The notes under the pieces are model-generated. The model saw only the letters and a program-made list of their open reading frames with translations, was not told the origin of the DNA and made no database searches. A DNA stretch of 61,736 bases, taken from IMG/VR virus record IMGVR_UViG_2974716774_000001, positions 1 to 61,736 of that record. One strand, given 5' to 3'. The translations under genes were made by a program, and so were the position numbers. Of the stretch, positions 3,704 to 55,450 are shown piece after piece (the first letter of the stretch is position 1; every line of letters starts with the position of its first letter). The stretch is from Jacunavirus JC01. Taxonomy: Duplodnaviria > Heunggongvirae > Uroviricota > Caudoviricetes > Casjensviridae.

Positions 3704-4081
3704 ATGTCTGGTTCTATTGAGCTGTTGATTGAAGCCCTGAATAACTGCACCGCTGCCCTGCAGGCCCACACCGCTGCAAACGGCAACGCCGCTGGCGCCG
3801 CAGCTGATAAATCTGCTTCTGGTGCTAAGAAAAACAACGCCAAACCGGCTAAACCGGAAACCCCGAAAGCAACGAAAACCAAGCAGGAAACCACTGAAGC
3901 GATCGTTGCGCTGAAAGACACCGTTGGCAAAGACGCTGCGGTCGCTCTTCTGAAGAAACACGGCTTTGCTAAGCTCGCGGACATCGCCGAAGATAAATTC
4001 GACGTGCTGTTCGAAGAAGCTACCGCACAGCTGGAAGCGCATAATGCCGCAGGCGACACTCCTGCTGACGACGACTTCTGA
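3704..4081 (+). CDS. Hypothetical Ala/Lys-rich protein with acidic C-terminal tail
   Basis: 125-aa ORF with RBS GGAG upstream; ends ...TPADDDF, reminiscent of SSB-type acidic tails. Confidence 0.55.
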   Translation: MSGSIELLIEALNNCTAALQAHTAANGNAAGAAADKSASGAKKNNAKPAKPETPKATKTKQETTEAIVALKDTVGKDAAVALLKKHGFAKLADIAEDKFDVLFEEATAQLEAHNAAGDTPADDDF

Positions 4082-4120: not shown

Positions 4121-5461
4121 ATGCCCGCCAGATCCTTTCTTCTCCGCCTCATGGATGAATTTGGAAACGGCGGGCATTCTATTTTTGCGCCGTCCGGTTC
4201 GGCGATGTGGCTTTACTGTAGCGGAAGCCTTATCGCGAACCTGCTGGAAGATGACGACGGCTCGTACGAGGCTGCCGAAGGAACGGTGGCGCACGAGCTG
4301 GGAGAGCAGTGGCTGAAGTCTGGCGTTAAGCCCGACCATCGGCTCGGTGAGGTCGTCAGCGTCACGGAAGGCGAAGGCAAGCCGGTTTATGAAGTGCCTA
4401 TCGACGAAGTGATGCTGGACTTCGTTGAAGAGTACGTGCTGTGGTGTGAATGGCTCGAAGGCGACCACTTCGTCGAGCAGCGAGTCTATTTTACCGAGCT
4501 GATGCCGTACGCCAATCAGGATGAGATTGAGGAAGACCCGCTGGCGGTGCCGGTGGATTTCGTACCTCAGGGCGGTACCGCCGACCACGTTTGCTGCATG
4601 ATGGGTCTGATGATTATCACGGACTTCAAATACGGCAAGGGGATCTGGGTCGACGCGGTGGGCAACACCCAGGCGATGCTGTATGCGCTGGGATTCTTTT
4701 ACAAATGGGACTGGAAATACCATTTCGAAAAGATAGTTATCCGCATCGCTCAGCCGCGCCTGCATAACTGGGGCGAGTGGGAAATAACGCGCGACGAGCT
4801 ACTGGATTTTGCCGAGTTCGTCCGCGAGCGCGCTGCGAAGGCGTGGCAGATTAACGCGCCGCGCCGGGTGAGTGCCAAAGGCTGTCAGTGGTGCAAAGCG
4901 AAAGACAGTTGCGTCGCGAACGCCGTGGCGCTGGAAAACCTCGTCTACCGCGATTTTGATTTGCTCGCGGAAGAACTGACGGAGCACCATATGTCGATGA
5001 TGAAAGAGAAGCTGCGCGAAGAGTACAAGATGCACCTCGCCAAAGTGGCCGTGCTGGACGAGGCGGACATGGTGCGCATTCTGGAATTTCGTCGGCCCGT
5101 TGAGCAGTGGTTTAAAGCCATCAACGCAAAACTGGAGGCCGCGGCTAACGCTGGCCACACCATTCCCGGCAAGAAGCTGGTGGATGGAAAATCAAATCGC
5201 GTTTTCCGTAACCAGAAAGCGGCGATTGATCATCTGCTGTTCCTCGGCCTTGAGATGGAGGATATCGTCACCGAAGAGGTTATCTCTCCGGCTCAGGCAG
5301 AGGAAAAGTTAAGGAAGGTGGCAAAGCTGGACAGGAAGAGCATCGACGTTGCGCTTCGCAACTACGTGTTCAAGCCTCCCGGAAAACCCACACTTGTCAA
5401 TGACGACGACCCAAGAGTCGCCCTGGGAGACCACGACGAAGGTGCCTGGGACGATGAGTAA
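4121..5461 (+). CDS. DUF2800-like PD-(D/E)XK nuclease (Cas4/RecB-like fold with C-terminal Cys cluster)
   Basis: 446-aa ORF; N-terminal HSIFAPSGSAMWLYCSGS pattern and C-terminal CQWCKAKDSC cluster; typical partner of DUF2815 and PolA in phage replication modules. Confidence 0.6.
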   Translation: MPARSFLLRLMDEFGNGGHSIFAPSGSAMWLYCSGSLIANLLEDDDGSYEAAEGTVAHELGEQWLKSGVKPDHRLGEVVSVTEGEGKPVYEVPIDEVMLDFVEEYVLWCEWLEGDHFVEQRVYFTELMPYANQDEIEEDPLAVPVDFVPQGGTADHVCCMMGLMIITDFKYGKGIWVDAVGNTQAMLYALGFFYKWDWKYHFEKIVIRIAQPRLHNWGEWEITRDELLDFAEFVRERAAKAWQINAPRRVSAKGCQWCKAKDSCVANAVALENLVYRDFDLLAEELTEHHMSMMKEKLREEYKMHLAKVAVLDEADMVRILEFRRPVEQWFKAINAKLEAAANAGHTIPGKKLVDGKSNRVFRNQKAAIDHLLFLGLEMEDIVTEEVISPAQAEEKLRKVAKLDRKSIDVALRNYVFKPPGKPTLVNDDDPRVALGDHDEGAWDDE

Positions 5462-5503
5462 CTCCGTAACTCCGTAACTCCGTAACTCCGTAACTCCGTA
5501 ACC
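5459..5503. repeat. Octanucleotide microsatellite (TAACTCCG) x5 plus partial unit
   Basis: Five perfect tandem copies of TAACTCCG at 5459-5498 plus TAACC; first unit contains the stop codon of the upstream gene. Confidence 0.9.
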
Positions 5504-5510
5504 CGAAAGG

Positions 5511-6155
5511 ATGGCCAAAATGGCTGAGAAACAAAAACTGGTAGTGGCTAAGCGTATGCAGGGCGGTGTCGTTTACACGAACGGCATGATTCGTCTGGAT
5601 GAAGTTATTCTGAGCTATCCGCACCTCGATGAGATGTGGGCAGGCGAAACCGGCGATAAACCGGCGTACAGTGCTGAGTTCCTTGCGCCGAAAGAGACGC
5701 ATCGGGAAATCATCAAAGAGGCGCTCGATATCTGCCGCAAGCTGGCGTCAGAAAAGAAACTTAACATCGCTGGCGACAAGATGTTCGTGAAAGACGGCGA
5801 TAAGTGGTTCGAGCACAAGCCGGAGTGCGCAGGCCGCTTTAAGTTTACTGCCCGCGAACAGACGCACCCTACCGTTCGTCGTGCGGACGGCAGTAAGATG
5901 CACCCTAAGGATGACAAGGCAGAAATCAAAGAGATGTTCTACGGCGGCTGCATTGTATCCGCTCTTATCAACCCCTGGGTGCAGAACAACTCCTACGGCA
6001 AACGTATCAACGCCAACCTGAAAGCTGTGCGCTTCGTGCGTGACGGTGAGCCGTTTGGTGAAGGTCGTGTCGACGACGATGAGGCATGGGATGATGACGT
6101 AGGCGGCGGTGACGACTGGGATTCCGGCGACGCTGGCAGCGATGATGATTTTTAA
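5511..6155 (+). CDS. DUF2815-like single-stranded DNA-binding protein
   Basis: 214-aa ORF with RBS AAAGGA; acidic C-terminus ...DWDSGDAGSDDDF; conserved position between DUF2800 nuclease and PolA. Confidence 0.55.
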   Translation: MAKMAEKQKLVVAKRMQGGVVYTNGMIRLDEVILSYPHLDEMWAGETGDKPAYSAEFLAPKETHREIIKEALDICRKLASEKKLNIAGDKMFVKDGDKWFEHKPECAGRFKFTAREQTHPTVRRADGSKMHPKDDKAEIKEMFYGGCIVSALINPWVQNNSYGKRINANLKAVRFVRDGEPFGEGRVDDDEAWDDDVGGGDDWDSGDAGSDDDF

Positions 6156-6214: not shown

Positions 6215-8269
6215 ATGCCTGACCACATTCGCCTTGACTATGAATCCCGTAGCCGAACCGACCTGCCCACTGCAGGCCTGGCCCGGTATGTGCGAGACCC
6301 GACCACGCAGGTGCTGATGGCTTCCTGGGAAGAGAACGATTCAGGGAAAATCGACTTCTGGGATATCCGCCAGGGCCGACGGCCGCCAAAACCGCTGATT
6401 GATGCTATCCGCGATCCGAAAGTTATCAAATGGGCCTTCAACGCGCAGTTTGAGCGCAACATGACCGAGCATGTCCTCGGCATAAAAACCCCGTATTCTT
6501 CCTGGCGCTGTACGATGGTGCTGGCGTACATGCTGGGCTTCTCTGGCGACCTCGCAATGATTGGCAGACTGGTAGGCCTGCCCGAAGAGATGCTGAAGAG
6601 CAAAGAGGGTTCGAAGCTCATCTCGCGTTTCTCAAAGCCGCGTAAACCAACAAAGGCCGACCCACGCGAATGGCACGACTGGACGACGCACCCGGAAGAG
6701 TTTGACAGTTTTGGCGGCTATAACCGACAGGACGTGCGCGCGGAGTCCGCTATCGGCCGTCGGCTCGGCAATACGGAGAAATACCCCATTCTGGAAAGCG
6801 AGTGGGATCTCTATGCGCTAGACCAGTACATCAACGACACCGGAGTCACCGTCAACGCCGAATTTGCGCGCATGGCACTTGAGGTGGCCGAGCGCAGGAA
6901 GCCGATCCTTTTTGAAGAGATGCGCGACATTACCGGCCTCAGTAACCCCAACTCCGTGTCTCAGCTGCTGCCCTGGCTGGGAGAACGCGGCTACCACTTC
7001 AGCGACATGCAGTCGGAAACAGTAAAGCAGGCGCTGCGCGAAGCCGATGAGCTGGGTCTTCCGGAAGAAGTTCGTCGCGTGCTGAAGCTGCGCCAGAACG
7101 TCAGCAAGTCGTCGCTCGGCAAATACAACACGATGCTGAGCACCATGACCGAGGAAGATAACAAATACCGCTACTCGCTGCAGATGTGGGGCGCCAGCCG
7201 CACCGGCCGCTGGGCAGGACGCGGCGTTCAGCTGCACAATTTGCCCCGCACGCCAAAAATGCTGGAAGACGAGTACATGCAGGACGTCGCCATTGAGATG
7301 GTGAAAAAAGGCGACATGGAAGGACTGGAGCTGCTGGTCGGCGAGCCGATGGACGCGCTGGTCGGTCTGATCCGCTCTGCCTTCATCCCCACCCCAGGCT
7401 ACCGTTTTGTGGTATCAGACCTGGCATCCATCGAATCGGTCGTTATCGGCTGGCTGACTGACTGCAAATGGTTCATGGACACGCTGCACGCCGGGCGAGA
7501 CCTGTACCGGGCGTTCGCCGCAGAGTGGCTGAAGATACCGTACGAAGAGACAAAACCGCACCGCAGCAAAGCCAAACCGGCAACCCTCGGCGCGGGCTAT
7601 GGTCTCGGCGGCGGCAAATTCGACCCGATTAAGAAAAAGAAAAACGGCCTGTGGGCATACGGCGAAGGTATGGGCGTATTCATGACCCAGCAGGAAGCGC
7701 ACGCGTCCGTGAATGCGTTCCGCGAGCTTTGCCCTGAAATCGTTTCGTACTGGCGCCAGCTGGAAGATGCAGCCAAGACGTGCATCAAAGAGCGCCGGTC
7801 GGTCAAGTGCGGCAAGGTTACTTTCGAGTTTCGTAAGCCGTTCATGGCCATCGTTCTTCCGTCCGGGCGCCGCCTGTATTACTTCAAGCCTTTCCTGAAA
7901 AAGAAAACCGTCGAGTACACGGACAAACACACCGGCGAGATCAAGACGTTCGAAAGCCAGGAGATTCTCTACTACGGGAAAGACGGCCCGAAATGGGGTC
8001 TCCAGCACACCTACGGCGGCAAGCTGGTGGAAAACATCGTACAGGCTATCGCGCGTGACGTGCTGGCCGGTGGGCTGAAACGCGCGCACGAAGACGGCTT
8101 CGGCATACCGTTCCACGTCCACGATGAAATCATCACGGAAGTGCCGGTCGACGACGAAGAGCGAAATCTCGATCGTCTGCGCCAGCACATGACGGCGCCG
8201 ATACCGTGGGCACCAGGTCTACCCCTCGGCGCAGCTGGGTGGGAAGGCTTCCACTACAGGAAAGACTGA
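6215..8269 (+). CDS. DNA polymerase, family A (Pol I-like)
   Basis: 684-aa ORF; motif A-like VVSDLASIESVV, motif B-like RSKAKPATLGAGYGLGG, motif C-like HVHDEIITEV; RBS GGAG upstream. Confidence 0.85.
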   Translation: MPDHIRLDYESRSRTDLPTAGLARYVRDPTTQVLMASWEENDSGKIDFWDIRQGRRPPKPLIDAIRDPKVIKWAFNAQFERNMTEHVLGIKTPYSSWRCTMVLAYMLGFSGDLAMIGRLVGLPEEMLKSKEGSKLISRFSKPRKPTKADPREWHDWTTHPEEFDSFGGYNRQDVRAESAIGRRLGNTEKYPILESEWDLYALDQYINDTGVTVNAEFARMALEVAERRKPILFEEMRDITGLSNPNSVSQLLPWLGERGYHFSDMQSETVKQALREADELGLPEEVRRVLKLRQNVSKSSLGKYNTMLSTMTEEDNKYRYSLQMWGASRTGRWAGRGVQLHNLPRTPKMLEDEYMQDVAIEMVKKGDMEGLELLVGEPMDALVGLIRSAFIPTPGYRFVVSDLASIESVVIGWLTDCKWFMDTLHAGRDLYRAFAAEWLKIPYEETKPHRSKAKPATLGAGYGLGGGKFDPIKKKKNGLWAYGEGMGVFMTQQEAHASVNAFRELCPEIVSYWRQLEDAAKTCIKERRSVKCGKVTFEFRKPFMAIVLPSGRRLYYFKPFLKKKTVEYTDKHTGEIKTFESQEILYYGKDGPKWGLQHTYGGKLVENIVQAIARDVLAGGLKRAHEDGFGIPFHVHDEIITEVPVDDEERNLDRLRQHMTAPIPWAPGLPLGAAGWEGFHYRKD

Positions 8270-8556
8270 TGGCCGCCAAAGTCGTCAAAGAGTCGAAAGT
8301 CGAGAAGGAGATCCGGCAGTACGCTCTCGCGACCGGCTGGTGGGTGGCGAAGTTCGTCGCCCCCGGCAAGCGCGGCGTACCGGATCGCCTGTTCATCAAA
8401 AACGGCTGGCACCTTTTCATGGAGATAAAAAGGCCCGGAGAGGTACCAACCGAACAGCAGTTACTTCGCCACCAGGAGATGCGCAAATATGGGGCTATTG
8501 TCGTATGGGTCGACAGCGTTGAAGAAGCTAAAAGCTGGCTTGATTTCATATGCTGA
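8269..8556 (+). CDS. VRR-NUC domain nuclease
   Basis: About 95 aa from the ATG overlapping the PolA stop (ATGA); residues PDRLFI...EIKRPGE fit the VRR-NUC pattern. Confidence 0.55.
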   Translation: MAAKVVKESKVEKEIRQYALATGWWVAKFVAPGKRGVPDRLFIKNGWHLFMEIKRPGEVPTEQQLLRHQEMRKYGAIVVWVDSVEEAKSWLDFIC

Positions 8557-10072
8557 ATACCGACACCGGAAATTTAAGCTGGTCGCCTATAAGCGGATGC
8601 AGCAGCACAAATACCAGCGAGAGGCCTATGACTTCATCATGGCCACGCCTTTCTGCGGGCTCTTCATCGACATGGGTCTCGGCAAAACAATCACCTCCCT
8701 GACCGCCGCGGTTGACCTGCTGATGAATTTCGAGGTCAGCCGCGTCTTGATCATCGCGCCCCGGCGCGTTGCTCGCAAAACATGGCCGGACGAGATTCTG
8801 GCGTGGGAACACACCTGCATGTTTGAGTTTCAGGTTATTGACGGCTCGGTTAAGCAGCGTCTGGAGGCCATCAAAAACCCGTGCAGCATTCACATTGTCA
8901 GCCGTGATAACGTCGAGTGGCTAACCGAGCAGTGGCGCCAGCGATGGCCATACGACATGGTTATCATTGACGAGAGCAGCTCCTTCAAAGACCACACTAC
9001 CAAACGCTTTAAAGCAATGCGCCGCGTTCGTCCGTACATCAAACGCCTCGTTGAACTGACGGCCACACCGGCGGCAGAGACCTACGAGCATCTTTTTGCC
9101 CAGGTCTATCTGCTGGACAGCGGCGCGCGCTTCGGCAAAAGCATCACGGTCTACCGCGAGCAGTATTTCAACTACAACCGCTGGACGTTCAAATACAAAC
9201 TGCGGGAGGGCTCGGAGCAGCAGATACTGGAGAAAATCGCCGACATCTGCCTGGTCATGCGCGCCGAGGACTATCTCGATCTGAAGCAGCCGGTGTACAT
9301 CAACCGCAAGGTGAAACTCGACCGCAAGCAGTCGAAGCTGTACGCCGAGATGGCTGAGAATTTCATCGTTGAGGTTTATGGCGCCGATGAGCAGCCGGTG
9401 ATGGTCGAGGCGGAGACAGCGGCGTCGCTTTCGGCCAAACTCCTGCAGATGTCCTCCGGCGTGCTATACAACACCTATCTGGACGGCATTAACGAGAAGA
9501 CCGGAAAGCCTATCCAGAAGCGCGACATCTACGAGATCCACACGGCAAAACTTGACATGCTGGAGGAAATCATAGAAGAGTGCGCTGGAGAGAACATTCT
9601 CGTGGCGTACCACTTCCAGTCGTCGCTTGACCGCCTGAAGAAGCGCTTTCCTAAAGCGGTTCAGATGGACAAAGAAGGCGAATGTGTCACGAAGTGGAAC
9701 CAGGGCAAGATAAGCCTGCTGCTGGCGCACCCGCAATCAGCCGGGCATGGTCTGAACCTGCAGAAAGGCGGCCACATCATTGTTTACTACGACATCCCGC
9801 ACTCGCTGGAGCTGTACATGCAGTTTAACGGCAGACTGGCGCGGCAGGGTCAGACGCACGTCGTCAAGATTATCCACCTCATCGCTGAAGGCGAGAAGCA
9901 GGATAAGCGCGGCGAGTGGGTGCCCATGCCGACGGTCGACGTCGGTGTCGTCGAATCCCTCCAGGCCAAAAAGGACGGCCAGGAATGGTTACTGGAAGAA
10001 TTGCTGCGGATACGCCGCCGACGCGCCAACGCGCGCAGGAAGGCACTGGCCGCAGCCGTAGAGGACTTCTGA
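8489..10072 (+). CDS. SNF2/DEAD-like helicase
   Basis: ATP-binding GLGKT motif, DESS (DEAH-like) box, C-terminal helicase region; start ambiguous (8489 overlaps the VRR-NUC gene, alternative ATG at 8597). Confidence 0.7.
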   Translation: MGLLSYGSTALKKLKAGLISYAEYRHRKFKLVAYKRMQQHKYQREAYDFIMATPFCGLFIDMGLGKTITSLTAAVDLLMNFEVSRVLIIAPRRVARKTWPDEILAWEHTCMFEFQVIDGSVKQRLEAIKNPCSIHIVSRDNVEWLTEQWRQRWPYDMVIIDESSSFKDHTTKRFKAMRRVRPYIKRLVELTATPAAETYEHLFAQVYLLDSGARFGKSITVYREQYFNYNRWTFKYKLREGSEQQILEKIADICLVMRAEDYLDLKQPVYINRKVKLDRKQSKLYAEMAENFIVEVYGADEQPVMVEAETAASLSAKLLQMSSGVLYNTYLDGINEKTGKPIQKRDIYEIHTAKLDMLEEIIEECAGENILVAYHFQSSLDRLKKRFPKAVQMDKEGECVTKWNQGKISLLLAHPQSAGHGLNLQKGGHIIVYYDIPHSLELYMQFNGRLARQGQTHVVKIIHLIAEGEKQDKRGEWVPMPTVDVGVVESLQAKKDGQEWLLEELLRIRRRRANARRKALAAAVEDF

Positions 10073-10073
10073 G

Positions 10074-10667
10074 ATGGTGGCGAAAAACAAAAATGCACCG
10101 ATGGCGCTAAGGGCGCGCCGGTCTAACCAGAACGACTCTGAAACCGAGTCGATGATATTCCAGGGCGCGAACATCACGCAGCTCGGGAAACTGTTTCGCA
10201 TGGATCGCCGCGACATCACGCCGAAAATAATGGACGTGGCGCCGTGTGGCGAGCGCGGCGGATACCCCATCTACTACGTCCATGAAGTCGCGCCGCACCT
10301 GGTGAAGCCGATATACGACGTCGAGACCTACCTCAAGCGAATGCACCCGAACGATCTGCCAAAACATCTGACGAAAGAGTTTTGGGGCGGGATGCGCGCC
10401 AAGCAGGAGTACGACAAGGAAGCGGGCAACCTGTGGGAGACGGATAAAGTCATCGCGATAATGAGCGAAGTTTTCAAAGTCCTGCGAATGTCTATCCTGC
10501 TGGCCGGTGACACCGTGGAGCGCGAAATCGCTTTCACCGCTGAACAACGCGAGAAGCTTCGCGTTATTCTCGACGGCGCGCTGCAGGAATGCGCTAACGG
10601 CCTGGTAAACCGCTTCGGCCCTGAGGCTGAGAAAGAGCAGGAGCAGGACGATGACGACGAAATATAA
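10074..10667 (+). CDS. Terminase small subunit (Nu1-like, putative)
   Basis: 197-aa ORF immediately upstream of and overlapping the large terminase; N-terminal region resembles the lambda Nu1 winged-HTH; acidic C-terminus QDDDDEI. Confidence 0.5.
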   Translation: MVAKNKNAPMALRARRSNQNDSETESMIFQGANITQLGKLFRMDRRDITPKIMDVAPCGERGGYPIYYVHEVAPHLVKPIYDVETYLKRMHPNDLPKHLTKEFWGGMRAKQEYDKEAGNLWETDKVIAIMSEVFKVLRMSILLAGDTVEREIAFTAEQREKLRVILDGALQECANGLVNRFGPEAEKEQEQDDDDEI

Positions 10668-17537: not shown

Positions 17538-17942
17538 ATGCCTCAACGTAAAGTAGTCCAGACTGTAGTCCTGCTCCGCGATGGCGAGCGCATTGTGCCG
17601 CCGGTCGGCAAGCCGTTCAACTTCACCGCGGAAGAGCTGAAGCGTATCGAAGAAGTGAATCCGGACGCAGTGGCGAAGATTGTCGACCCGGGCACCGATG
17701 AAGGTAAACTGGTGACGCTGACCCAAGCTGAGATTGATCAGCAGAAGCAGCAGGCGATCGATGATGCCATTGCTAAATTCAAAAAAGAGCAGGGTATCAA
17801 AGATGATGCTGAAAACACCGATGGCGGCGCTGACAAAAACGCTGCTGGCACCACTGCCAGCAAAACGCAGCAGTCCGGCAAAACGCAGCAGTCCGGCAAA
17901 AACGACAAGTCAGCTGCTGATGCAGCGGGCGATGACATCTAA
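17538..17942 (+). CDS. Hypothetical head-associated protein (position of lambda FI)
   Basis: 134-aa ORF with RBS AGGAGAGAAGG; contains an in-frame 18-bp tandem duplication (KTQQSG KTQQSG). Confidence 0.5.
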   Translation: MPQRKVVQTVVLLRDGERIVPPVGKPFNFTAEELKRIEEVNPDAVAKIVDPGTDEGKLVTLTQAEIDQQKQQAIDDAIAKFKKEQGIKDDAENTDGGADKNAAGTTASKTQQSGKTQQSGKNDKSAADAAGDDI

Positions 17943-33417: not shown

Positions 33418-34371
33418 ATGGCCACCTTTATCGACGGCTTTGAACAGTTTGACGGCGACCGCACTGCGGCGCTGATGCGCATGGCAGGCTACTCCGTCGG
33501 CGGTGTCACCCTGGCGGCGGGCAGGAAGGGCAACAGCCGCTCGGTCAGCTGCTACCGCGCCACGCTCTCCCGGGCATGGTCGATGGTCGACAATCTCCTG
33601 ACGCTGGGCTTCGCGGTCAAATTCGACCAGCGTGGCCCGCTGCTGTCCGTGGGATCCGGCGCGAACCAGCTGTACCTGTGGGTAGACCCGGAGACCGGGC
33701 TGGTTAACCTCGGCACTGGCCTGGCGGCCGGTACGCCGGGATACATCAACCCGCTGAAAAACCGCTGGTACTACTTCGAGCTGCAGCTGGACAAGTCCAC
33801 CAGCAAAGCGACGCTGTTCGTGAATGGCAAACAGGACATCTCGATACCGCTGCCATCCTTCATCACCGGCAACCTGACCGTGCTGCTCAACCCGTTTCAG
33901 CTCTTCGTGGCGCCGAAGGAGGACTACGGCACGCGGCTCTACGACGACCTGTACCTCAACGACGGCCCGCGGCTCGGCCCGATTCAGGTCACGTCGCGTT
34001 TCGCCACGGCGGATGGCAGCAAGACCGGCTGGAGTTTTGACGGTGCTGCTACGCGCTGGCAGGCGGTGTCGCCGCCGATTAACGAGCTGGACAAGTTTAT
34101 CTACACGGCGATCGACGGGAACGAGAACAGCTTCATCTCCGGCACCTCGCTGCCGGACAATAACCCTATCCGGTACCTGCAGCTGGTAACGCTCTTCAGG
34201 AAGGCCACGTCTGACCCGATGAGCCTCGACTTTAACATCGGCAGCCAGGTGAAACGTGAGTCAAACATCAGCCGCGACTGGACGTTCCGATATACGATGA
34301 TGAGCGCGTCGGGGTATGATGCCGACAGCATTAAGGCCGCCGAGTTCGGCGTCAAACTGATTCTGGGGTAA
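33418..34371 (+). CDS. Paralog 1 of a five-member tandem family (putative lectin-like tail fibre/decoration protein)
   Basis: 317 aa; N-terminal M-x-x-F-I-D-G-F-E; internal RWYYFELQL...LFVNGK; RBS GAGGAAAG. Confidence 0.55.
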   Translation: MATFIDGFEQFDGDRTAALMRMAGYSVGGVTLAAGRKGNSRSVSCYRATLSRAWSMVDNLLTLGFAVKFDQRGPLLSVGSGANQLYLWVDPETGLVNLGTGLAAGTPGYINPLKNRWYYFELQLDKSTSKATLFVNGKQDISIPLPSFITGNLTVLLNPFQLFVAPKEDYGTRLYDDLYLNDGPRLGPIQVTSRFATADGSKTGWSFDGAATRWQAVSPPINELDKFIYTAIDGNENSFISGTSLPDNNPIRYLQLVTLFRKATSDPMSLDFNIGSQVKRESNISRDWTFRYTMMSASGYDADSIKAAEFGVKLILG

Positions 34372-34375
34372 ACAC

Positions 34376-35353
34376 ATGCTGATTTTTATGGATGGCTTCG
34401 AGCAGCTGAGAGACACGGTGGCCTCCGGCTCGCCTTCCCCGCTGCTGACAGTTCTCAACGCCTCCGGCTACACCGCCTCAGGCAATATCACCGTTGACCC
34501 AGCGCGCGTTCAGACGTCGCGCTGCCTGACGCTGGTGGACACGGCGACGCTGAAGCGCACCTTCACCTCGACGCAGGGCAAGGTCGTTATCGGCTTTGCG
34601 TACAAAGGCGGCACCCGCACGGATATCACGAATATCACGAACGTCGGCGCGCTGCAGTGGGATGCGACCACGGGCAAGCTGAAGATGGCCAATGGCACCG
34701 GCACGGCCACGGTGCTGCTGGACACGTGGTATTACTACGAGATTGTGATCGACAAGGCGAACCAGCTACTGCAGGTCTTCGTGAATAACGGAAAAGACAT
34801 CGAGGTCGGGCTACCGGCCAGCGCGCAGAACCTGTCGACATTTGAGTGCCTGTGGGCTGGCGCCGCGGCCGATAACAAAGGCGTTGATGACCTGTACTTC
34901 GTCGACAGCGCCACCGGCCGCTACGTTGACCGCATGGGGCCGATAGCCATTACCGCCCGCCTGCCCACGCAGGACGTCGACAAAGAATGGTCGCCTTCCA
35001 GCGGCACCGACCACTGGGATCTCGTCAATAACATGCCGCCGGTCGACGACCAGTATGTCCAGTCAAACACCTCCGGCGCGACTGACACGTACCTCTCGAA
35101 CGTCGGTCTGCCTCAGGGCGCCGCGATCCTGGCCGTCGGCATCACGGCGCTGAATAAGAAGTCCGATATCGACGCCCGGCAGCTGGGGCTGGTCATCGGG
35201 CGCAAGGGCCAGACGCAGAAGGAAAAGGTGGACACTCAGCTCTCCACCAGCCCAAAATACAGTTACGCCGTCTTCGAGACCGCGCCGGACAACACGGCGT
35301 GGACGGATGAAAGCGTGACCTCAGTACCGTTCGGCGTCGTCGTGCGCCCATAA
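34376..35353 (+). CDS. Paralog 2 of the tandem family
   Basis: 325 aa; N-terminal MLIFMDGFEQ; TWYYYEIVID...VFVNNGK; YVQSNTSGATD motif. Confidence 0.55.
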   Translation: MLIFMDGFEQLRDTVASGSPSPLLTVLNASGYTASGNITVDPARVQTSRCLTLVDTATLKRTFTSTQGKVVIGFAYKGGTRTDITNITNVGALQWDATTGKLKMANGTGTATVLLDTWYYYEIVIDKANQLLQVFVNNGKDIEVGLPASAQNLSTFECLWAGAAADNKGVDDLYFVDSATGRYVDRMGPIAITARLPTQDVDKEWSPSSGTDHWDLVNNMPPVDDQYVQSNTSGATDTYLSNVGLPQGAAILAVGITALNKKSDIDARQLGLVIGRKGQTQKEKVDTQLSTSPKYSYAVFETAPDNTAWTDESVTSVPFGVVVRP

Positions 35354-35366
35354 CAGGAGAAACACA

Positions 35367-36392
35367 ATGTCTCTTAAATTTCAGGACGGCTTCGACCACT
35401 ACGCCGCAACCGGAGTTAAGGGCGCGACGCTTCAGCCGTATCTCACCGATAACGGCTACGATGTGCGTAACGCCTCCGACACCACGTTCGCCGTGGTTGA
35501 TGGTCGACGTGCTGGCGCGCGGGCGCTGCAGTTCACCGTGGCGCGAAACTCAACGACGAACGCGTCGCTGTCGTGGGGCTTCACCTATCAGGGCGACTAC
35601 GCCTGCTTCGGCTTTGCGATGAAGGCCAGCGGCTCCCGTATGCGCATCTGCCGCATCGAGAACGTCATCGACGTCGACTGGGATGCCACTACCGGCAAAA
35701 TCAGCGTGGCGGGCCAGCTGGGCGTTAACCCGCTCATCCTGAACGACTGGTACTACTTCGAGATTGAATGCGACTTCACCGCGAATAACGTTAAGATCTG
35801 GGCGAACAACGAACTGCAGCTGACCGTGGATATCTCGTCCGTCGCGAAGCCCGCGAAAGCGACTATCGTGTGGGGCCAGGTAGGCACCGCGCCGGATGCT
35901 GGCGTGCAGATCCTGGATGACTTCTACGCGCTCGATGCCGGTGGCACCTCCAATACCGCACGCCTGTCGCCGATTGAAGTCGTGACCCGTGCGCCGTCAG
36001 CCGACATCACGACCCAGTGGGAGATCGTGAACGCTACGGCAGGCACGCCGCACTACCAGATCGCCGGGCAGCTGGAGCCGAACAAAGCGGGCGCGCCGTA
36101 CCTGCAGTCGAACACCGCTGGCGCCACTGACCTGTTCCGCTCCAACACCGCGCTGCCGACAGACAACACGGTCTTTGCGGTCTCCGTCATCGCGTACGCT
36201 CGCAAGGGCGACGTGGACGACCGCAAACTCGGTCTGCTGATCCAGCCTGAGGGCGGCTCTGAGTCCGAGACGCAGGTGCCGCTGACGGAGGCCTTCAAGT
36301 ATTACCAGCAGACCTTCGATAAAACGCCGAGCGGCGGCGCGTGGAATAAGAACATTGTAGAGTCGCTGCAGTTCGGCATCCGCACGCGCTAA
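35367..36392 (+). CDS. Paralog 3 of the tandem family
   Basis: 341 aa; N-terminal MSLKFQDGFDHYA; DWYYFEIECD...IWANN; YLQSNTAGATD motif; RBS AGGAGAAA. Confidence 0.55.
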   Translation: MSLKFQDGFDHYAATGVKGATLQPYLTDNGYDVRNASDTTFAVVDGRRAGARALQFTVARNSTTNASLSWGFTYQGDYACFGFAMKASGSRMRICRIENVIDVDWDATTGKISVAGQLGVNPLILNDWYYFEIECDFTANNVKIWANNELQLTVDISSVAKPAKATIVWGQVGTAPDAGVQILDDFYALDAGGTSNTARLSPIEVVTRAPSADITTQWEIVNATAGTPHYQIAGQLEPNKAGAPYLQSNTAGATDLFRSNTALPTDNTVFAVSVIAYARKGDVDDRKLGLLIQPEGGSESETQVPLTEAFKYYQQTFDKTPSGGAWNKNIVESLQFGIRTR

Positions 36393-36401
36393 GGAGCCAG
36401 C

Positions 36402-37559: not shown

Positions 37560-37568
37560 GGAGCCAGC

Positions 37569-45313: not shown

Positions 45314-46021
45314 TTACAGATCCTCCCACCTTCTGAACCACGCTTCCCGATCGAAATGCTTCTTCGCCGCCAGTGGCATCCCGATCTCCATCAGCTCTTC
45401 CCGGCGGACGTACTCTTCTGGCGCGCGGCTGGTGCTGAGGCCATCGAAGATAATCAGCGACGCGCCGAAGCCTGCGGTAGAGGCATCAGAAGACATGGCG
45501 TCTGGTCTGTACCAGCGAGGCAGGTCGAAAGCGATACGCCCTTTGATGTGGATAATCTTCGAGCATTCGCCGTCCGGCCACCAGCTCTCCGACGTCGCCG
45601 ACTTCACCAGCCAGAAAGATGGCGTGCCTTTCCGGTGCTCTTCGTACGCCTTCTTCATGATGTGCTGCATACCGGTGACGTGGGGCGCCCGACGGCCGCG
45701 CCCGGCGCGCTTGATGCTGTAAGGTGGATTGCCGAAGCATTTGACCGGCTCAGCGTCATCCGCACCCGCCAGCTCGGCACCTTTGCGCAGCGCTGCGCTC
45801 CAGTCCTGCGTCAGCGCGTTATCATCTGCCGTGAAGAACACCGGGCACTTCGCATTGGGGCCGTCACTGAACAGGTCGACGACGAACGGGCCATACAGCT
45901 CATCCAGCGCCAGGTAGAGCCAGTCCGGCGTACACCACTGGTCGCCTATCTCGTTCGGCAGGTGGGTCTGCTGGGCCTGCAGTTGCTGCAGAGCACGCAC
46001 GTACTCATTGCTCATCGGCAT
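45314..46021 (-). CDS. DNA N6-adenine methyltransferase (phage Dam-like)
   Basis: 235-aa ORF; NPPY catalytic motif (CFGNPPYS) and W-C-T-P-D-W segment. Confidence 0.65.
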   Translation of the reverse strand: MPMSNEYVRALQQLQAQQTHLPNEIGDQWCTPDWLYLALDELYGPFVVDLFSDGPNAKCPVFFTADDNALTQDWSAALRKGAELAGADDAEPVKCFGNPPYSIKRAGRGRRAPHVTGMQHIMKKAYEEHRKGTPSFWLVKSATSESWWPDGECSKIIHIKGRIAFDLPRWYRPDAMSSDASTAGFGASLIIFDGLSTSRAPEEYVRREELMEIGMPLAAKKHFDREAWFRRWEDL

Positions 46022-50385: not shown

Positions 50386-50603
50386 GATACCCTCTTGATC
50401 CGCGTGCCGGTCTTGCCGTAAATCTCGTCGCGCTCGACGAACCGGAAAGCCAGCCTCAGGTTGAGTTTATAGCCCAGCTTGCGCAGGTACGTGCAGTGCT
50501 TGGGCAGGACGTTCTCCAGGAAGAACGAGTCGCCGATGGCCAGTCGCGCCAGCAGCTCCTCGTGCTTCTGCCTGGTCTCAGGGGAGATGTCAGATATCGT
50601 CAT
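50382..50603 (-). CDS. Hypothetical small protein
   Basis: About 73 aa from the ATG at 50603, overlapping the RdgC-like C-terminus by 14 nt. Confidence 0.4.
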   Translation of the reverse strand: MTISDISPETRQKHEELLARLAIGDSFFLENVLPKHCTYLRKLGYKLNLRLAFRFVERDEIYGKTGTRIKRVS

Positions 50604-51816
50604 CGTCGTCTTCGCTCTCTTCTTCGCCGAGATCCCACTCGTCATCCACCATGTCCTCTTCGCTTTCCGGCAGCGGCTCGCCGCCTTTCGCCTTAGCCTT
50701 CGATTCTTTGGCCACCGCGATATCGTCGCCGTCCGCGTAGTCCTCCAGCGCCGAGCGGTTAACGGTGACGCCGGTGCGATACATCGCGGTGCTGAAGGCA
50801 ACGATGGCGCGACGCATGACCCACAGCTCGCTCATCCACAGCTGGAAAGCATTGTCACCGCGATCATATTCCTGCCCGAAGTCCACGTCATCGCTCTCGG
50901 CGCTGGTGGAGAACGCTTTTACGTCGCCGTTGTGGTTCATCTTCGCCCAGATGTTCTCCATGCCAGGCAGATTGGACATGAAGCGGAACTCCATTTCCGT
51001 CGGGAAGAAGCCGGACGCCAGCAGATCGCGGTAGCGCGGCTCAGCCAGCTCGCCGTCTTTGACCGAGATGGTCTCTTTCTCATCGTTCACGAGTTTCAGG
51101 TGGCTGCCCAGCAGGAAAAGGTCTGCCACATCGGAGTGACGGAGCAGGATGCTGCGGAAGAAGCGCTGCATGGCGCCCTGGTCGACGTACGCGGGCACCG
51201 TAGGGAGCGAGCTGAACGCCTTGCGGATGAGCGCCGTGACATCTTCTGCTGCCTTCTGGCTGCCGGTGAAGACATACAGGTCAAGCCCGTCGATCATGAC
51301 GTAAATGCGGCTGCGGCGGATGGGCGCGGTGGTCAGCAGCTGCGCCGTCACCTCGTCTTTCAGGATGGCGTAGTCTTTGCGGTTCAGCTCGCGCTCTTCG
51401 CGTGCCTTCATCTCGGCGGCGCGCTCAAACAGCTTGTCGTTGATGGAGCTGGACGGCAGCACGCGCTCGCGCTTCTCGATGCACATTACCAGGGAATTGC
51501 ATTCGTGGATCTCGACGACCAGCGGCTGCACATATTTATCTTCGCCGTCTTCTTTACCCGCGTACATGTCTTCCGGCACCGCGTAGTGCGGAGGTACGAA
51601 GCCCCAGGTGCGCCACTGGCCGTGCGCCGGGTCTTTGGCCGGGTGCTCTTTCAGGCGGTCGTGGATGAGCTGAATGGCGGACTCGTGGTCGATTTCGCCT
51701 TCGTGCAGATCCAGAATGGTCAGCAGCGCCGCCGCCACGTCTTTGCCTTCGCGGACGTTCTCGGCGATCTTATCGAGGTAGTAGTGCTGGAACTTATCGA
51801 AGTGCTTCAGTTTCAT
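50590..51816 (-). CDS. Recombination-associated protein RdgC-like
   Basis: 408-aa ORF; AAEDVTALIRKAFSSLPTVP and NSLVMCIEKRERVLPSS match the RdgC pattern ([37 protein letters not shown]); acidic C-terminal tail EEESEDDDDDI. Confidence 0.6.
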   Translation of the reverse strand: MKLKHFDKFQHYYLDKIAENVREGKDVAAALLTILDLHEGEIDHESAIQLIHDRLKEHPAKDPAHGQWRTWGFVPPHYAVPEDMYAGKEDGEDKYVQPLVVEIHECNSLVMCIEKRERVLPSSSINDKLFERAAEMKAREERELNRKDYAILKDEVTAQLLTTAPIRRSRIYVMIDGLDLYVFTGSQKAAEDVTALIRKAFSSLPTVPAYVDQGAMQRFFRSILLRHSDVADLFLLGSHLKLVNDEKETISVKDGELAEPRYRDLLASGFFPTEMEFRFMSNLPGMENIWAKMNHNGDVKAFSTSAESDDVDFGQEYDRGDNAFQLWMSELWVMRRAIVAFSTAMYRTGVTVNRSALEDYADGDDIAVAKESKAKAKGGEPLPESEEDMVDDEWDLGEEESEDDDDDI

Positions 51817-54044: not shown

Positions 54045-54581
54045 TTAAATCTTGTCACGGAGCCACTGGATCCCAGCGGACATGTATTTGACCTGATGAA
54101 TCGCATCATCGAGGGCGTTGTGGAATGTGCCTTCTCGTTCGAACTTCAACGGGTTTATGCCTGCCAGATCTACCGCCGTACGAACGTCGCGGATATTCCA
54201 GAATTTCCACGGTGTCGGAAGATGCAGCTGAGCGAACCACGCTTCCAGAATAGTGATGTCGAACACGGATCCGTTGCCCCAAACGAGGTCATTACCGTCC
54301 AGCCACTGAATGAATTTAAGGGCACTCTCGCGCGGGTTGTCGCTGCCATTAAACGCGTCCTGCTTAGCGGCGTCTGACTGTTTCTGCCACCATTCCAGGG
54401 TGTCGGGGTCAACGTGCCCGAAGGCGCGGGCATTTTCGTAGCCCATGCAGCAGTAGAACGTCTCACCGATCTCGCCCGTGTAGCGGTCGAAAGCCACGGC
54501 GCCGATGGACAGCACCGAACAGCCCGGGCTACGGCCGAGCGTCTCAATGTCGATCATTACGTCACGATGTTTCTTTTTCAC
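54045..54581 (-). CDS. DEDDh-type 3'-5' exonuclease (DnaQ-like)
   Basis: 178-aa ORF; Exo I IDIETLG, Exo III HNALDDA. Confidence 0.6.
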   Translation of the reverse strand: MKKKHRDVMIDIETLGRSPGCSVLSIGAVAFDRYTGEIGETFYCCMGYENARAFGHVDPDTLEWWQKQSDAAKQDAFNGSDNPRESALKFIQWLDGNDLVWGNGSVFDITILEAWFAQLHLPTPWKFWNIRDVRTAVDLAGINPLKFEREGTFHNALDDAIHQVKYMSAGIQWLRDKI

Positions 54582-55450
54582 CAGTCTTCTCCGAAAGGAT
54601 TACACTCTTCAGTGCAGTTACCCGGCGCATCTTCATACAACGGCCGGTAGTCATTATCGACTTCACTAAACGTCGCTATCAGGTCAGCGGCGCTACGGAA
54701 GCCCCGGTACATCTTGCGTGGCCCTTCGACCACATTTGGCCCGACGTCACCACAGCTTTTCTCCATTTCCGCCGCGGCGTGGAAGTATTCCGGATTGTCC
54801 TGGAAGGCCCGGAGCAGCTTCGCGTCAGACTTTTTAAAGCAGAAAACGCAGTTTCCGCAGTGCTCAGGTATCCCCAGGTCAAACGGCATAAACTCCCACC
54901 AGTCGAGCACATCTTCTTTCGTGGTTGGCCACCAGTGCGCCAGCGGGTACACCTTGTTTTGCCGGGTCTGGCGGTCAGGCTTTTTAGGCTTGATGCGCCG
55001 TGGTTCGTCAATGCGCATACCGACGGCTGTCAGGTATTCCCCTTTGGCCCAGCCCAGCGCCTCCCACAGATACCCGTGGATCGGTATCTCTTTCAGCTCC
55101 CGCGTGCAGTGCAGGTAGTTGGTGTTCGGTAGCCCATACTTCCGGCACATCTCGATGTAGGGCTCACCTTTGCGGCTGGCGGTCTCGTACGTCACTACCT
55201 TCCAGCCGGTGCGCACGCCTTTCTGCTCGTGCGTTATCGCCTCCACCCACACGGTATTGAAGCCCAGCTGAACGTCGCAGTTATGCACGAAGTCCAGCGT
55301 GGCCGGGTGCTCAAAGCCAGTGTTGGCGAAAAGCACTTTAATGTCGTACTCGTCTGACTTCTCCTGCAGCAGCCGGTACGTCATGTGCGCCGAGGTTCGG
55401 CCACCGGACATGGCGGCCACCAGCCGTGGTTTCATTTGTGATGCCCGCAC
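54578..55450 (-). CDS. PP-loop ATP pyrophosphatase superfamily protein (PAPS-reductase-like)
   Basis: 290-aa ORF; PP-loop-like AAMSGGRTSA near the N-terminus; cysteine pairs HCGNCVFC and NCTEEC. Confidence 0.55.
   Translation of the reverse strand: MRASQMKPRLVAAMSGGRTSAHMTYRLLQEKSDEYDIKVLFANTGFEHPATLDFVHNCDVQLGFNTVWVEAITHEQKGVRTGWKVVTYETASRKGEPYIEMCRKYGLPNTNYLHCTRELKEIPIHGYLWEALGWAKGEYLTAVGMRIDEPRRIKPKKPDRQTRQNKVYPLAHWWPTTKEDVLDWWEFMPFDLGIPEHCGNCVFCFKKSDAKLLRAFQDNPEYFHAAAEMEKSCGDVGPNVVEGPRKMYRGFRSAADLIATFSEVDNDYRPLYEDAPGNCTEECNPFGEDW

Follow-up and report, generated by a model that had tools for sequence, protein, structure and literature searches.

[quoted passage not shown] Shared C-terminal signals are also familiar from the sliding-clamp/PCNA hub, which reads a short C-terminal peptide of many unrelated DNA enzymes. 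The bacterial SSB C-terminal peptide (..DFDDDIPF) is a hub for at least 18 genome-maintenance proteins; it also binds the OB fold of SSB itself in competition with ssDNA, and this peptide-OB fold contact draws GFP bearing the E. coli peptide into SSB droplets. In phage T7, the acidic tails of the SSB gp2.5 (..GDF) and of the primase-helicase gp4 (..TDF) bind basic patches on the gp5 polymerase. The tail of the DUF2815 protein ORF6 of phage Enc34 lies in the concave sheet of a neighboring SSB molecule, where it buries 842 Å2 with its tip disordered; the same tail-in-neighbor contact is present in two other DUF2815 crystals and in gp2.5, and deletion of the ORF6 tail alters DNA specificity. In the Enc34 paper, the tail is regarded as a feature of the SSB alone, and the ending ..DEDEV on other proteins is not mentioned. 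The primase, gp4, the nuclease, and the small terminase of Enc34 have this ending as well.

Here, we analyzed a window of 61,736 nucleotides, the complete genome of Cronobacter phage JC01 (Casjensviridae), in which 71 proteins were counted. A first-pass annotation had listed five DNA-metabolism proteins with SSB-like acidic C-termini, and all five quoted C-termini were found exactly in the JC01 sequence. We found four further members: the SNF2 helicase, a small protein encoded after the capsid gene, a Dam-like methylase, and a phosphoadenosine phosphosulfate (PAPS)-reductase-like protein. The nine genes and their tails are as follows.

3704..4081, + strand: 125-aa protein, ortholog of Chi gp4 (phrog_7721, function unknown)
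4052-4078, + strand: tail of the 125-aa protein, GDTPADDDF, ending ..TPADDDF
4121..5461, + strand: DUF2800 nuclease, 446 aa (PF10926, E = 7e-68)
5429-5458, + strand: tail of the DUF2800 nuclease, DHDEGAWDDE, acidic, with one Trp and without a hydrophobic last residue
5511..6155, + strand: T7/Enc34-type ssDNA-binding protein, 214 aa (PF10991; phrog_112, Gp2.5-like SSB)
6063-6152, + strand: acidic tail of the SSB, GRVDDDEAWDDDVGGGDDWDSGDAGSDDDF, ending ..GSDDDF
8489..10072, + strand: SNF2-family helicase, 527 aa (SNF2-rel_dom, Helicase_C), ending ..AAAVEDF (10049-10069)
10074..10667, + strand: small terminase subunit, 197 aa (phrog_141, E = 1.9e-51; DUF1441)
10629-10664, + strand: tail of the small terminase, EKEQEQDDDDEI, ending ..QDDDDEI
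17538..17942, + strand: 134-aa protein (DUF7443) directly after the major capsid gene, ending ..AAGDDI (17922-17939)
45314..46021, - strand: Dam-like DNA methyltransferase (PF05869, E = 3.7e-30), ending ..RRWEDL
50590..51816, - strand: RdgC-like protein, 408 aa, of which ~100 form a C-terminal extension (PF04381)
50593-50682, - strand: tail of the RdgC-like protein, ..DDEWDLGEEESEDDDDDI, ending ..SEDDDDDI
54578..55450, - strand: PAPS-reductase-like protein (PF01507), ending ..PFGEDW

Eight of the 71 JC01 proteins have a C-terminus made of two acidic residues and one hydrophobic residue. The narrower pattern [DE]{2}[IF] ends six proteins against 0.11 expected, [DE]{3}[hydrophobic] ends four where its frequency inside the same proteins predicts 0.048 (P = 2e-7), and DDD(x)[hydrophobic] ends four against 0.004 expected. 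The tags are restricted to DNA-handling genes: one of the 26 proteins in the structural and lysis block is tagged, versus 7 of the 45 elsewhere, and tags are absent from the orthologous tail, capsid, and lysis proteins in all four genomes compared.

The pattern extends well beyond JC01. Across the whole family, each genome has 6 to 11 unrelated DNA-handling proteins that share this short acidic ending, and the tagged set includes the primase, methylases, ParB, and RusA in addition to the JC01 members. The last residue is specific to the lineage. Chi-like phages end in ..D-E-V ([DE]{2}V on 9 of the 69 Chi proteins versus 0.10 expected), JC01-like phages in ..D-D-I or F, relatives infecting Aeromonas, Xanthomonas, and Pseudomonas in ..D-E-L (here, L-type; [DE]{2}[LM] on 11 of 69 proteins in phiWae15 versus 0.18 expected), and BcepNazgul in ..G-L (8 of 57 proteins versus 0.38 expected). 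Each tip type is at or below chance in the other three of these four genomes (JC01, Chi, phiWae15, and BcepNazgul). Among the control genomes, none of the 63 lambda proteins carries such a tail; T7 has none by the strict pattern, its two known tails, on gp2.5 and gp4, both ending in ..DF.

Several trivial explanations were considered and rejected. Chance or composition is ruled out by the internal-frequency tests together with the lambda and T7 controls. G+C bias does not separate the types, as genomes with V, I/F, and L tips all lie at 0.56 to 0.60 G+C. Copying of DNA between tails is not supported either: different codons are used for the same residues, and Chi uses all four Val codons. An overlap with the Shine-Dalgarno sequence of the next gene fails as well, in that the tails consist of GAY/GAR codons and several precede long gaps or terminator-like hairpins. 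Given the different codons for the same residues and the similar G+C content, selection appears to act on the protein.

The family assignments made at first pass hold. The SSB matches PF10991 with an E value of 1.6e-18 (67.5 bits; cut-off, 26) and phrog_112 with 2.6e-40, and it is a direct ortholog of Enc34 ORF6 (44.7% identity by tblastn). Its base-stacking Trp (Trp150 in Enc34) is present in 21 of 21 sequences, with ..LINPWVQNN.. aligning to ..VIRPWSQEN.. of Enc34. Of the last 30 residues, 14 are acidic and one is basic; the Enc34 tail, with 16 acidic residues in its last 29, aligns with this region. The SSB tail is kept in all 21 aligned orthologs, and its tip residue differs by lineage. 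The contig of the closest JC01 relative ends just past the DUF2800 gene and hence does not include the SSB tip. The RdgC-like protein, which matches PF04381 across residues 107 to 282 (E = 5.6e-26), is more acidic still at its end (18 acidic and no basic residues in the last 30); 44 of 46 homologs end in acidic residues followed by I, L, or V, and a distant homolog of 296 aa has no tail. For the small terminase, 75 of 78 database homologs end in the same way, with a last residue that tracks similarity to the JC01 query.

For the 125-aa protein, the DNA-metabolism label is an assumption, because no known family matched. A Pfam search gave no match. In its AlphaFold model, a helix at the N-terminus is followed by a disordered basic linker, a domain of three helices (pLDDT, ~88), and a tail that is disordered, and a Foldseek search of the PDB with this model returned nothing at E <= 0.001. 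Among 20 homologs, 17 end in ..DDI, 2 in ..DDDF, and 1 in ..GL.

The remaining members carry shorter or weaker tails. That of the SNF2 helicase is the weakest, with just two acidic residues; among its orthologs, the I clade shows the ends ..VEF or ..[DE]EW, the V clade ..VWDDEE, and L-type phages ..DL, ..EL, or ..GL. The 134-aa protein occupies the position of FI in lambda, and from gene order alone an FI-like role may be suggested. The protein ends at this position are ..AEDEV (Chi), ..PEDDL (phiWae15), and ..ASASGL (BcepNazgul), each matching the type of its genome, and so the post-capsid protein follows the tip of each lineage. The Dam-like methyltransferase has a weaker tail of a Trp-acidic type, for which the orthologous ends are ..TWDEI in SLP-22, ..MWDEI in Chi, and ..EDEDEL in phiWae15. 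The PAPS-reductase-like protein has orthologs ending in ..YDEDL (SLP-22) and ..EFEDDEV (Chi gp42). The primase of JC01 is untagged and ends in ..EVADTWA, whereas those of Chi-like (..DDEDEV) and L-type (..DDDEL) relatives are tagged.

To quantify the agreement of tips within genomes, we compared six protein families across 23 genomes. Within-genome last-residue agreement was 0.459, versus 0.167 +/- 0.018 in shuffled data, and 0 of 20,000 within-family shuffles, which ignore relatedness, reached the observed value. In a tree of the DUF2800 core, from which the tail had been removed, the V clade and the I clade each form a single branch inside a paraphyletic L-type background. Two concerted switches follow from this topology, both of them involving at least five unrelated families; independent tip-change events are few, namely, these two major switches and some minor ones. 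The tip goes with the phage lineage and not with the host: Salmonella is infected by both Chi (V) and SLP-22 (I), and phages with the V type infect Salmonella, Klebsiella, Hafnia, and Providencia.

The first-pass annotation took the bacterial tip DDDIPF as its model, and this comparison did not hold up: Pro-Phe occurs in no tail, and T7 gp2.5 and gp4 are closer. An [IL]-P-F tip is absent from all JC01 tails and from ~150 homolog tails inspected; the forms seen were D-D-F, D-[DE]-I, D-E-V, D-[DE]-L, and G-L. This bears on the idea that the tails mimic the tip of host SSB, so as to hijack or sequester host proteins that dock on DDDIPF (exonuclease I, RecQ, PriA, and the chi subunit). Both do consist of an acidic run and then a hydrophobic C-terminus, the end of the SLP-22 SSB (DFDDDDDI) resembles that of E. 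coli SSB, and the C-terminal peptide of host SSB contacts at least 18 proteins. Yet the defining Pro-Phe is missing, bacterial SSB tips are near-invariant, so that a mimic should be near-invariant too, and the last residue differs between phages that share Salmonella as host. We regard host mimicry as improbable.

The dependence of the tip on phage lineage rather than host also weighs against a role in protein turnover, in which a protease, chaperone, or other quality-control factor would read the tags as degrons or antidegrons that set how long early proteins last. Degradation tags of the ssrA type likewise work as one C-terminal signal for many proteins, and charged C-termini stabilize proteins in E. 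coli; such a role would also cover tags on enzymes unrelated to the fork. However, known bacterial C-terminal degrons are nonpolar or basic rather than polyacidic, no phage-encoded cytoplasmic protease candidate was seen besides the prohead protease, and the SSB tail has a documented binding role. Of the explanations weighed here, we give this one very little credence.

A different possibility is that there is no shared receptor and that each tail is an intramolecular DNA mimic, covering the DNA-binding surface of its own protein until substrate arrives, as in gp2.5, gp32, and HMGB1; the recurrence of tails would then merely reflect DNA binding. Consistent with this, Enc34 ORF6 without its tail binds double-stranded DNA as well as ssDNA, and nearly all tagged proteins bind or process DNA. 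What it leaves unexplained are the identical last residue across unrelated folds, the concerted switching between lineages, and the tagging of proteins that, like the PAPS-reductase-like protein, have no evident surface for DNA binding. As a general account it is distinctly unlikely, although for the SSB itself the DNA-mimic and shared-receptor models are not exclusive.

The suggestion of a shared docking mechanism fared better in part. The tails are kept in orthologs, unrelated proteins change their last residue in concert, and the involvement of at least five unrelated families in these switches lends support to the idea of a putative docking device. We consider it reasonably likely that a shared, co-evolving receptor reads the tails. 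The tails would then be short, disordered docking tags, each made of an acidic run, often preceded by a Trp-acidic motif, one hydrophobic last residue, and a free carboxylate. Casjensviridae would carry this tag on their SSB and would have grafted it onto many unrelated proteins that work on phage DNA, namely, the primase, the DUF2800 nuclease, the SNF2 helicase, the RdgC-like protein, DNA-modification enzymes, the small terminase, the FI-position protein, and the 125-aa protein. One phage-encoded receptor surface, with a basic rim and a hydrophobic pocket, would read all tags of a genome and so concentrate these proteins at phage ssDNA and SSB. Because one pocket would read them all, a change in it would force every tag to change its last residue together, which would explain V in Chi-like phages, I/F in JC01-like phages, L/M in distant relatives, and G-L in BcepNazgul. 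Precedents for such docking are the T7 tails that bind the polymerase, the Enc34 tail packed onto a neighboring SSB molecule, and the uptake of peptide-bearing GFP into SSB droplets.

The leading, though tentative, candidate for this receptor is the body of the phage SSB. Tagged proteins would in that case either be drawn into the SSB pool or compete for the SSB surface, both with ssDNA and with the tail of the SSB itself. A scan of conserved proteins for clade-differing sites showed that the SSB core has an R-to-N change in the I clade, two residues before the base-stacking Trp, and an F-to-K change at the base of the tail in the V clade; such SSB core sites map to tip type in no simple way and are inseparable from phylogeny. 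Tips can also be mixed within a genome. JC01 has F on the 125-aa protein, SSB, and SNF2 helicase and I on the terminase, RdgC-like protein, and FI-position protein; L022/L023 combine F with L, and phiAxp-2 combines L with M. One strict pocket is thus an oversimplification, and there may be two receptors or one tolerant receptor. For the small terminase, the large terminase is an ordinary alternative partner of the tail.

The closest precedent, T7, suggests another receptor. As in JC01, the T7 SSB (of the same fold family, PF10991/phrog_112) and another replication protein share a disordered acidic tail with the same last residue, and ..GDF and ..TDF of T7 are comparable to ..DDDF on the JC01 SSB and 125-aa protein and ..EDF on its SNF2 helicase. 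The common receptor could then be the phage DNA polymerase, with tails tethering the SSB, primase, and other fork proteins to basic patches; the gp2.5 and gp4 tails bind the front basic patch of gp5 and a patch in its thioredoxin-binding domain, the terminal Phe matters, three JC01 proteins share the ..DF ending, and the primase is tagged in Chi-like and L-type relatives. The T7 receptor is not conserved among the tagged phages, however. A JC01-type PolA is missing from six of nine L-type genomes. The phiAxp-2 polymerase has no detectable similarity to that of JC01 (BLASTP E = 0.46) and yet the tags are kept, and the polymerases of phiAxp-2 and FoX4, both tagged phages, have no Pfam match. The polymerase is therefore unlikely as the sole receptor, since the polymerases of tagged phages are unrelated. 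The untagged primase of JC01 also speaks against it, and polymerase tethering is hard to square with tags on the small terminase, FI-position protein, methylases, ParB, and RusA.

In a comparison of JC01 PolA with T7 gp5 aimed at the basic patch, BLASTP gave nothing significant and hhalign aligned the exonuclease region only (probability, 8%); against solved structures, PolA gave short Pol theta and Klenow matches only. We also modeled PolA joined to the SSB tail by a Gly-Ser linker with AlphaFold (106-sequence alignment). The polymerase had a pLDDT of 93 and the tail one of ~28 to 31, and the tail was not docked, a weak negative judged from pLDDT.

Beyond the receptor, the family differs from T7 in scale and in behavior. 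Two of 52 T7 proteins are tagged, versus 6 to 11 of ~57 to 71 in the JC01 family, where tags reach the small terminase, nuclease, RdgC, SNF2, methylases, ParB, and RusA and where the last residue varies by lineage (V, I/F, L/M, and GL) in concert. The bacterial SSB peptide likewise closes a disordered tail with an acidic run and a hydrophobic residue at the free C-terminus. In bacteria, though, only SSB has the peptide and its partners have pockets, whereas in the JC01 family the peptide is found on the partners as well; Pro-Phe marks the near-invariant bacterial tip, whereas the JC01-family tip is lineage specific and lacks it. Docking peptides of sliding clamps (T4 gp45 partners and PIP boxes) offer a third likeness, one hub for a short shared C-terminal peptide, but these are hydrophobic or Gln containing rather than polyacidic, and no clamp gene was seen in JC01.

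Our search of the literature found no earlier description of this family-wide shared-tail pattern. Two replisome proteins sharing a tail are known from T7; here the device is present on up to one-sixth of a phage's proteins and extends into packaging and DNA modification, and the concerted change of the last residue offers natural evidence for one reader. Going further, and with appreciable doubt, we suggest that Casjensviridae may have a private C-terminal address code, in which a single phage-encoded hub, the SSB body being the most plausible one, would gather replication, recombination, DNA-modification, and packaging proteins into an SSB-centered factory or condensate. Code and reader would co-evolve, and related phages of the same host would thus have noninterchangeable codes, suggesting a mechanism that separates the machineries of co-infecting relatives. 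If true, the docking system would span the proteome and be of a type that has been described for no phage. A single reader, if confirmed, would reveal how a siphovirus of middle size organizes its DNA factory without a clamp and would supply a portable tag with which proteins could be brought to the sites of phage replication; tail peptides used as bait would give a simple handle on the hub. The last-residue rule is also a cheap annotation cue, flagging genes such as that of the 125-aa protein as part of the DNA-handling set.

A second motif recurs alongside the acidic tip. The DUF2800 tail had been listed as a tail of the same type; it is acidic and present in the sequence as quoted, but in JC01 it has no hydrophobic last residue and instead matches another shared motif, A-W-D-D-E, similar to the conserved A-W-D-D that opens the SSB tail. 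Chi-like orthologs run on as ..AWDDEDDDDEV and L-type orthologs end in ..DDDEL; the JC01 clade therefore stops at the A-W-D-D-E motif. Enrichment of Trp-acidic motifs near C-termini is modest in JC01 (P = 0.012) and not significant in Chi, phiWae15, and BcepNazgul. By alignment and residue count, the traced end of the Enc34 ORF6 tail, ..SDAYD, is the A-W-D motif. The T7 gp4 tail also contains D-W (..STDWSNDTDF).

The window, 61,736 bases long, holds the whole genome of Cronobacter phage JC01, a Chi-like siphovirus (Casjensviridae); of the phages in the collection, Salmonella phage BAU.Micro_SLP-22 (genus Jacunavirus) is closest to it. The first-pass annotation had proposed that several JC01 proteins share SSB-like acidic C-terminal tails. 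The five C-termini that it quoted each match the sequence letter for letter, and profile matches bear out the family names it gave. The proteins are as follows.

3704-4081 (+), 125-aa protein, orthologue of Chi gp4
4121-5461, DUF2800 nuclease (family match)
5511-6155, T7/Enc34-type SSB (PF10991, E 1.6e-18; phrog_112, 'Gp2.5-like')
10074-10667, small terminase (phrog_141, DUF1441)
50590-51816 (-), RdgC domain with a C-terminal extension of ~100 residues (family match)

Profile searches placed the 125-aa protein in no known family. In its AlphaFold model, a disordered basic linker joins an N-terminal helix to a three-helix domain, after which the tail is disordered; a fold search with the model gave no match.

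The excess of acidic-hydrophobic C-termini in JC01 is real. Among the 71 proteins called with a codon-usage score, four end in [DE]{3}[hydrophobic] against 0.048 expected from the pattern's internal frequency in the same proteins (P = 2e-7). A looser rule, [DE]{2}[FILMVW], is fitted by eight proteins, four of them absent from the first-pass list: an SNF2 helicase (..AVEDF), a small protein encoded 3' of the capsid gene (..AGDDI), a Dam-like methylase (..RRWEDL) and a PAPS-reductase-like protein (..FGEDW). Tags are carried by 1 of 26 virion and lysis genes and by 7 of the 45 others. The PAPS-reductase-like gene overlaps a P-loop ATPase gene (54578-56208, minus strand), with the Dam-like methylase nearby (45314-46021, minus strand); these genes may form a DNA-modification module, several proteins of which bear the lineage tag, and Chi and SLP-22 each have two PAPS-reductase-like genes.

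The comparison set comprised 26 loci from viral metagenomes found with the DUF2800 profile, eight phage replication modules with annotation, and five whole genomes (Chi, phiWae15, BcepNazgul, T7 and lambda). Each tail type is in excess in its own proteome and does not exceed chance expectation in any of the other three.

C-terminal tail types in four whole proteomes (genome; pattern; observed; expected)
JC01; [DE]{2}[IF]; 6/71; 0.11
Chi; [DE]{2}V; 9/69; 0.10
phiWae15; [DE]{2}[LM]; 11/69; 0.18
BcepNazgul; GL; 8/57; 0.38

None of the 63 lambda proteins, Nu1, FI and NinC included, has such a tail. The strict pattern likewise finds none in T7, whose two known tails read ..EDGDF (gp2.5) and ..NDTDF (gp4).

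Orthologues keep the tails. An acidic end closed by I, L or V is found in 44 of 46 RdgC-like homologues and 75 of 78 small-terminase homologues, and all 20 homologues of the 125-aa protein have a hydrophobic last residue, preceded by acidic residues in 19. A distant RdgC homologue of 296 aa lacks both the C-terminal extension and the tail. The annotated orthologue of the 125-aa protein in BcepNazgul (gene 72; locus L036, 3627-4151) has an arginine-rich end, ..RRRRGRRRRRRQRR.., and no acidic tail; such an end would result if Asp/Glu-rich sequence were read out of frame, and the record or the annotation may contain a frameshift.

The last residue is lineage specific and common to unrelated proteins of one genome. 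In Chi, two acidic residues and V end the primase (..DDEDEV), gp4 (..EEDDV), the nuclease (..DDDDEV), the SSB (..WEDEV), the small terminase (..DDDEV), gp18 (..AEDEV), gp42 (..EDDEV), RdgC (..DDDDEV) and gp62 (..DDDEV). The tip is ..D[DE]I in JC01 relatives and ..[DE][DE]L in Aeromonas phage phiWae15, in which a gene annotated as an RNA-directed DNA polymerase (locus L041, 21398-22405) adjoins the tail-fibre genes and may be a diversity-generating retroelement. BcepNazgul has eight G-L ends (primase, nuclease, SSB, helicase, RusA-like resolvase, ParB-like protein, post-capsid protein and one more), and its small terminase, outside the gene call behind that count, also ends ..PAAGL. Individual families gain and lose the tag: Chi and the L-type phages (the Aeromonas, Xanthomonas and Pseudomonas relatives) have it on the primase and nuclease and JC01 does not, and gp62 bears it in Chi but not in JC01. 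Such gain and loss family by family fits a portable module. JC01 itself has mixed tips, F on replication-module proteins and I on the terminase, RdgC and the protein encoded directly after the major capsid gene; mixed tips in some genomes may mean that the tags have several readers, or a single tolerant reader.

In a permutation test, tails were shuffled within each protein family across 23 genomes. Last-residue agreement within genomes was 0.459 in the real data and 0.167 +/- 0.018 in the shuffled sets, and not one of the 20000 shuffles gave agreement as high as the real data. Because this control ignores relatedness, we built a tree from the DUF2800 core with the tail removed. L-type genomes are deep and paraphyletic on this tree and the V clade and I clade are one branch each, so that the data amount to two major concerted tip switches, each in at least five unrelated families. 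Minor events also occurred: in the JC01 lineage alone, F replaced I on the 125-aa protein and the SSB; phiAxp-2 and FoX4 changed from L to M; and BcepNazgul has the G-L variant. Trivial causes were considered and rejected: all tip types lie at 0.56-0.60 G+C; codons differ from tail to tail, which speaks against copying of a single DNA segment; and Asp/Glu codons are unlike Shine-Dalgarno sequences, with long gaps 3' of several tails. Mimicry of the host SSB tip is less likely, since Pro-Phe is missing and the tip tracks phage lineage rather than host, Chi (V) and SLP-22 (I) both being Salmonella phages.

By analogy with known systems, we think it probable that the tails are docking tags for a shared, co-evolving phage receptor. 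One phage-encoded surface would recognize them, and a change in that surface would change all tags of a genome together. This reading draws on three precedents. The T7 polymerase has basic patches to which gp2.5 and gp4 attach by their acidic tails. The tail of Enc34 ORF6, a Chi-clade protein directly orthologous to the JC01 SSB, lies in the concave sheet of an adjacent SSB molecule and buries 842 A2 there; gp2.5 and two further DUF2815 crystals show this contact too, and the protein can bind dsDNA once its tail is removed. In E. coli, the C-terminal peptide of SSB competes with ssDNA for the OB fold, and GFP bearing the peptide enters SSB condensates. Purely intramolecular DNA-mimic tails are less likely, as they leave the concerted tips unaccounted for; a shared degradation signal is also less likely.

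As to the receptor of such docking tags, the body of the phage SSB is the best, if still doubtful, candidate, because it is orthologous in every genome examined, always has a tail that is acidic and closes with a hydrophobic residue, and belongs to proteins with experimental evidence for tail binding in trans. Polymerase tethering exactly as in T7 is less likely. The JC01-type PolA (6215-8269) is absent from six of nine L-type genomes; the phiAxp-2 polymerase has no detectable similarity to it; and the phiAxp-2 and FoX4 proteins, though annotated as DNA polymerases, have no Pfam match, while both phages keep the tags. An AlphaFold fusion of PolA and tail left the tail undocked. Unrelated polymerases in tagged phages and the undocked fusion make the polymerase a poor candidate for sole receptor. 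The polymerase slot (6215-8269 in JC01; 6507-8600 and 7349-9400 in relatives L032 and L035) holds unrelated proteins in an otherwise syntenic replication module. Among the 150 top-ranking homologues of the JC01 polymerase in a representative library, roughly one in four has a length of 800-1040 aa and aligns in two distinct segments, which suggests inteins or other insertions in this family.

The SSB tail aligns in three parts: a conserved proximal motif, ..PFGEGR(V/I)DDD(D/E)AWD(D/E).., whose Trp is present in most SSB sequences of every clade; a variable acidic spacer; and the lineage-specific tip. Aligning the sequences and counting residues, we place the end of the traceable Enc34 ORF6 chain at ..SDAYD, which is the A-W-D motif. 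In the JC01 clade the DUF2800 nuclease terminates in A-W-D-D-E, and motifs of this type end the Chi-clade SNF2 helicase (..VWDDEE) and lie within the RdgC tail (..DDEWD..). The DUF2800 tail ..EGAWDDE is present as first reported; it had been likened to the SSB tip and instead resembles the start of the SSB tail, since A-W-D-D-E belongs to the proximal motif. Tryptophan-acidic motifs near C-termini are only modestly enriched.

Acidic tails on phage SSBs and the two-protein case of T7 are already known. The literature searched gave no account of a lineage-coded tag spread over several Casjensviridae proteins, and neither the JC01 genome paper (PMC9759504) nor the Enc34 paper mentions one.

Two further features of the JC01 genome were observed. 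Five consecutive genes at 33418-38645 encode proteins of 317-385 aa with alike N-termini (MxxFxDGFEQ..) and C-termini (..FG[IV]..) and look like a tandem paralogous tail-fibre or side-fibre family. The 49-nt gap that separates the DUF2800 stop from the SSB start is filled by a perfect tandem repeat, (GTAACTCC) x 5.6, at 5458-5502, and all five genome copies of CTCCGTAA sit in this repeat. The same gap in ~20 relatives holds 3-8 imperfect repeats of ~8 nt with a CGTAA or GTAAA core and diverged sequences. One possibility, by analogy with T4 gene 32, is a translational operator for SSB autoregulation; another is a device giving stop codons in all three frames.
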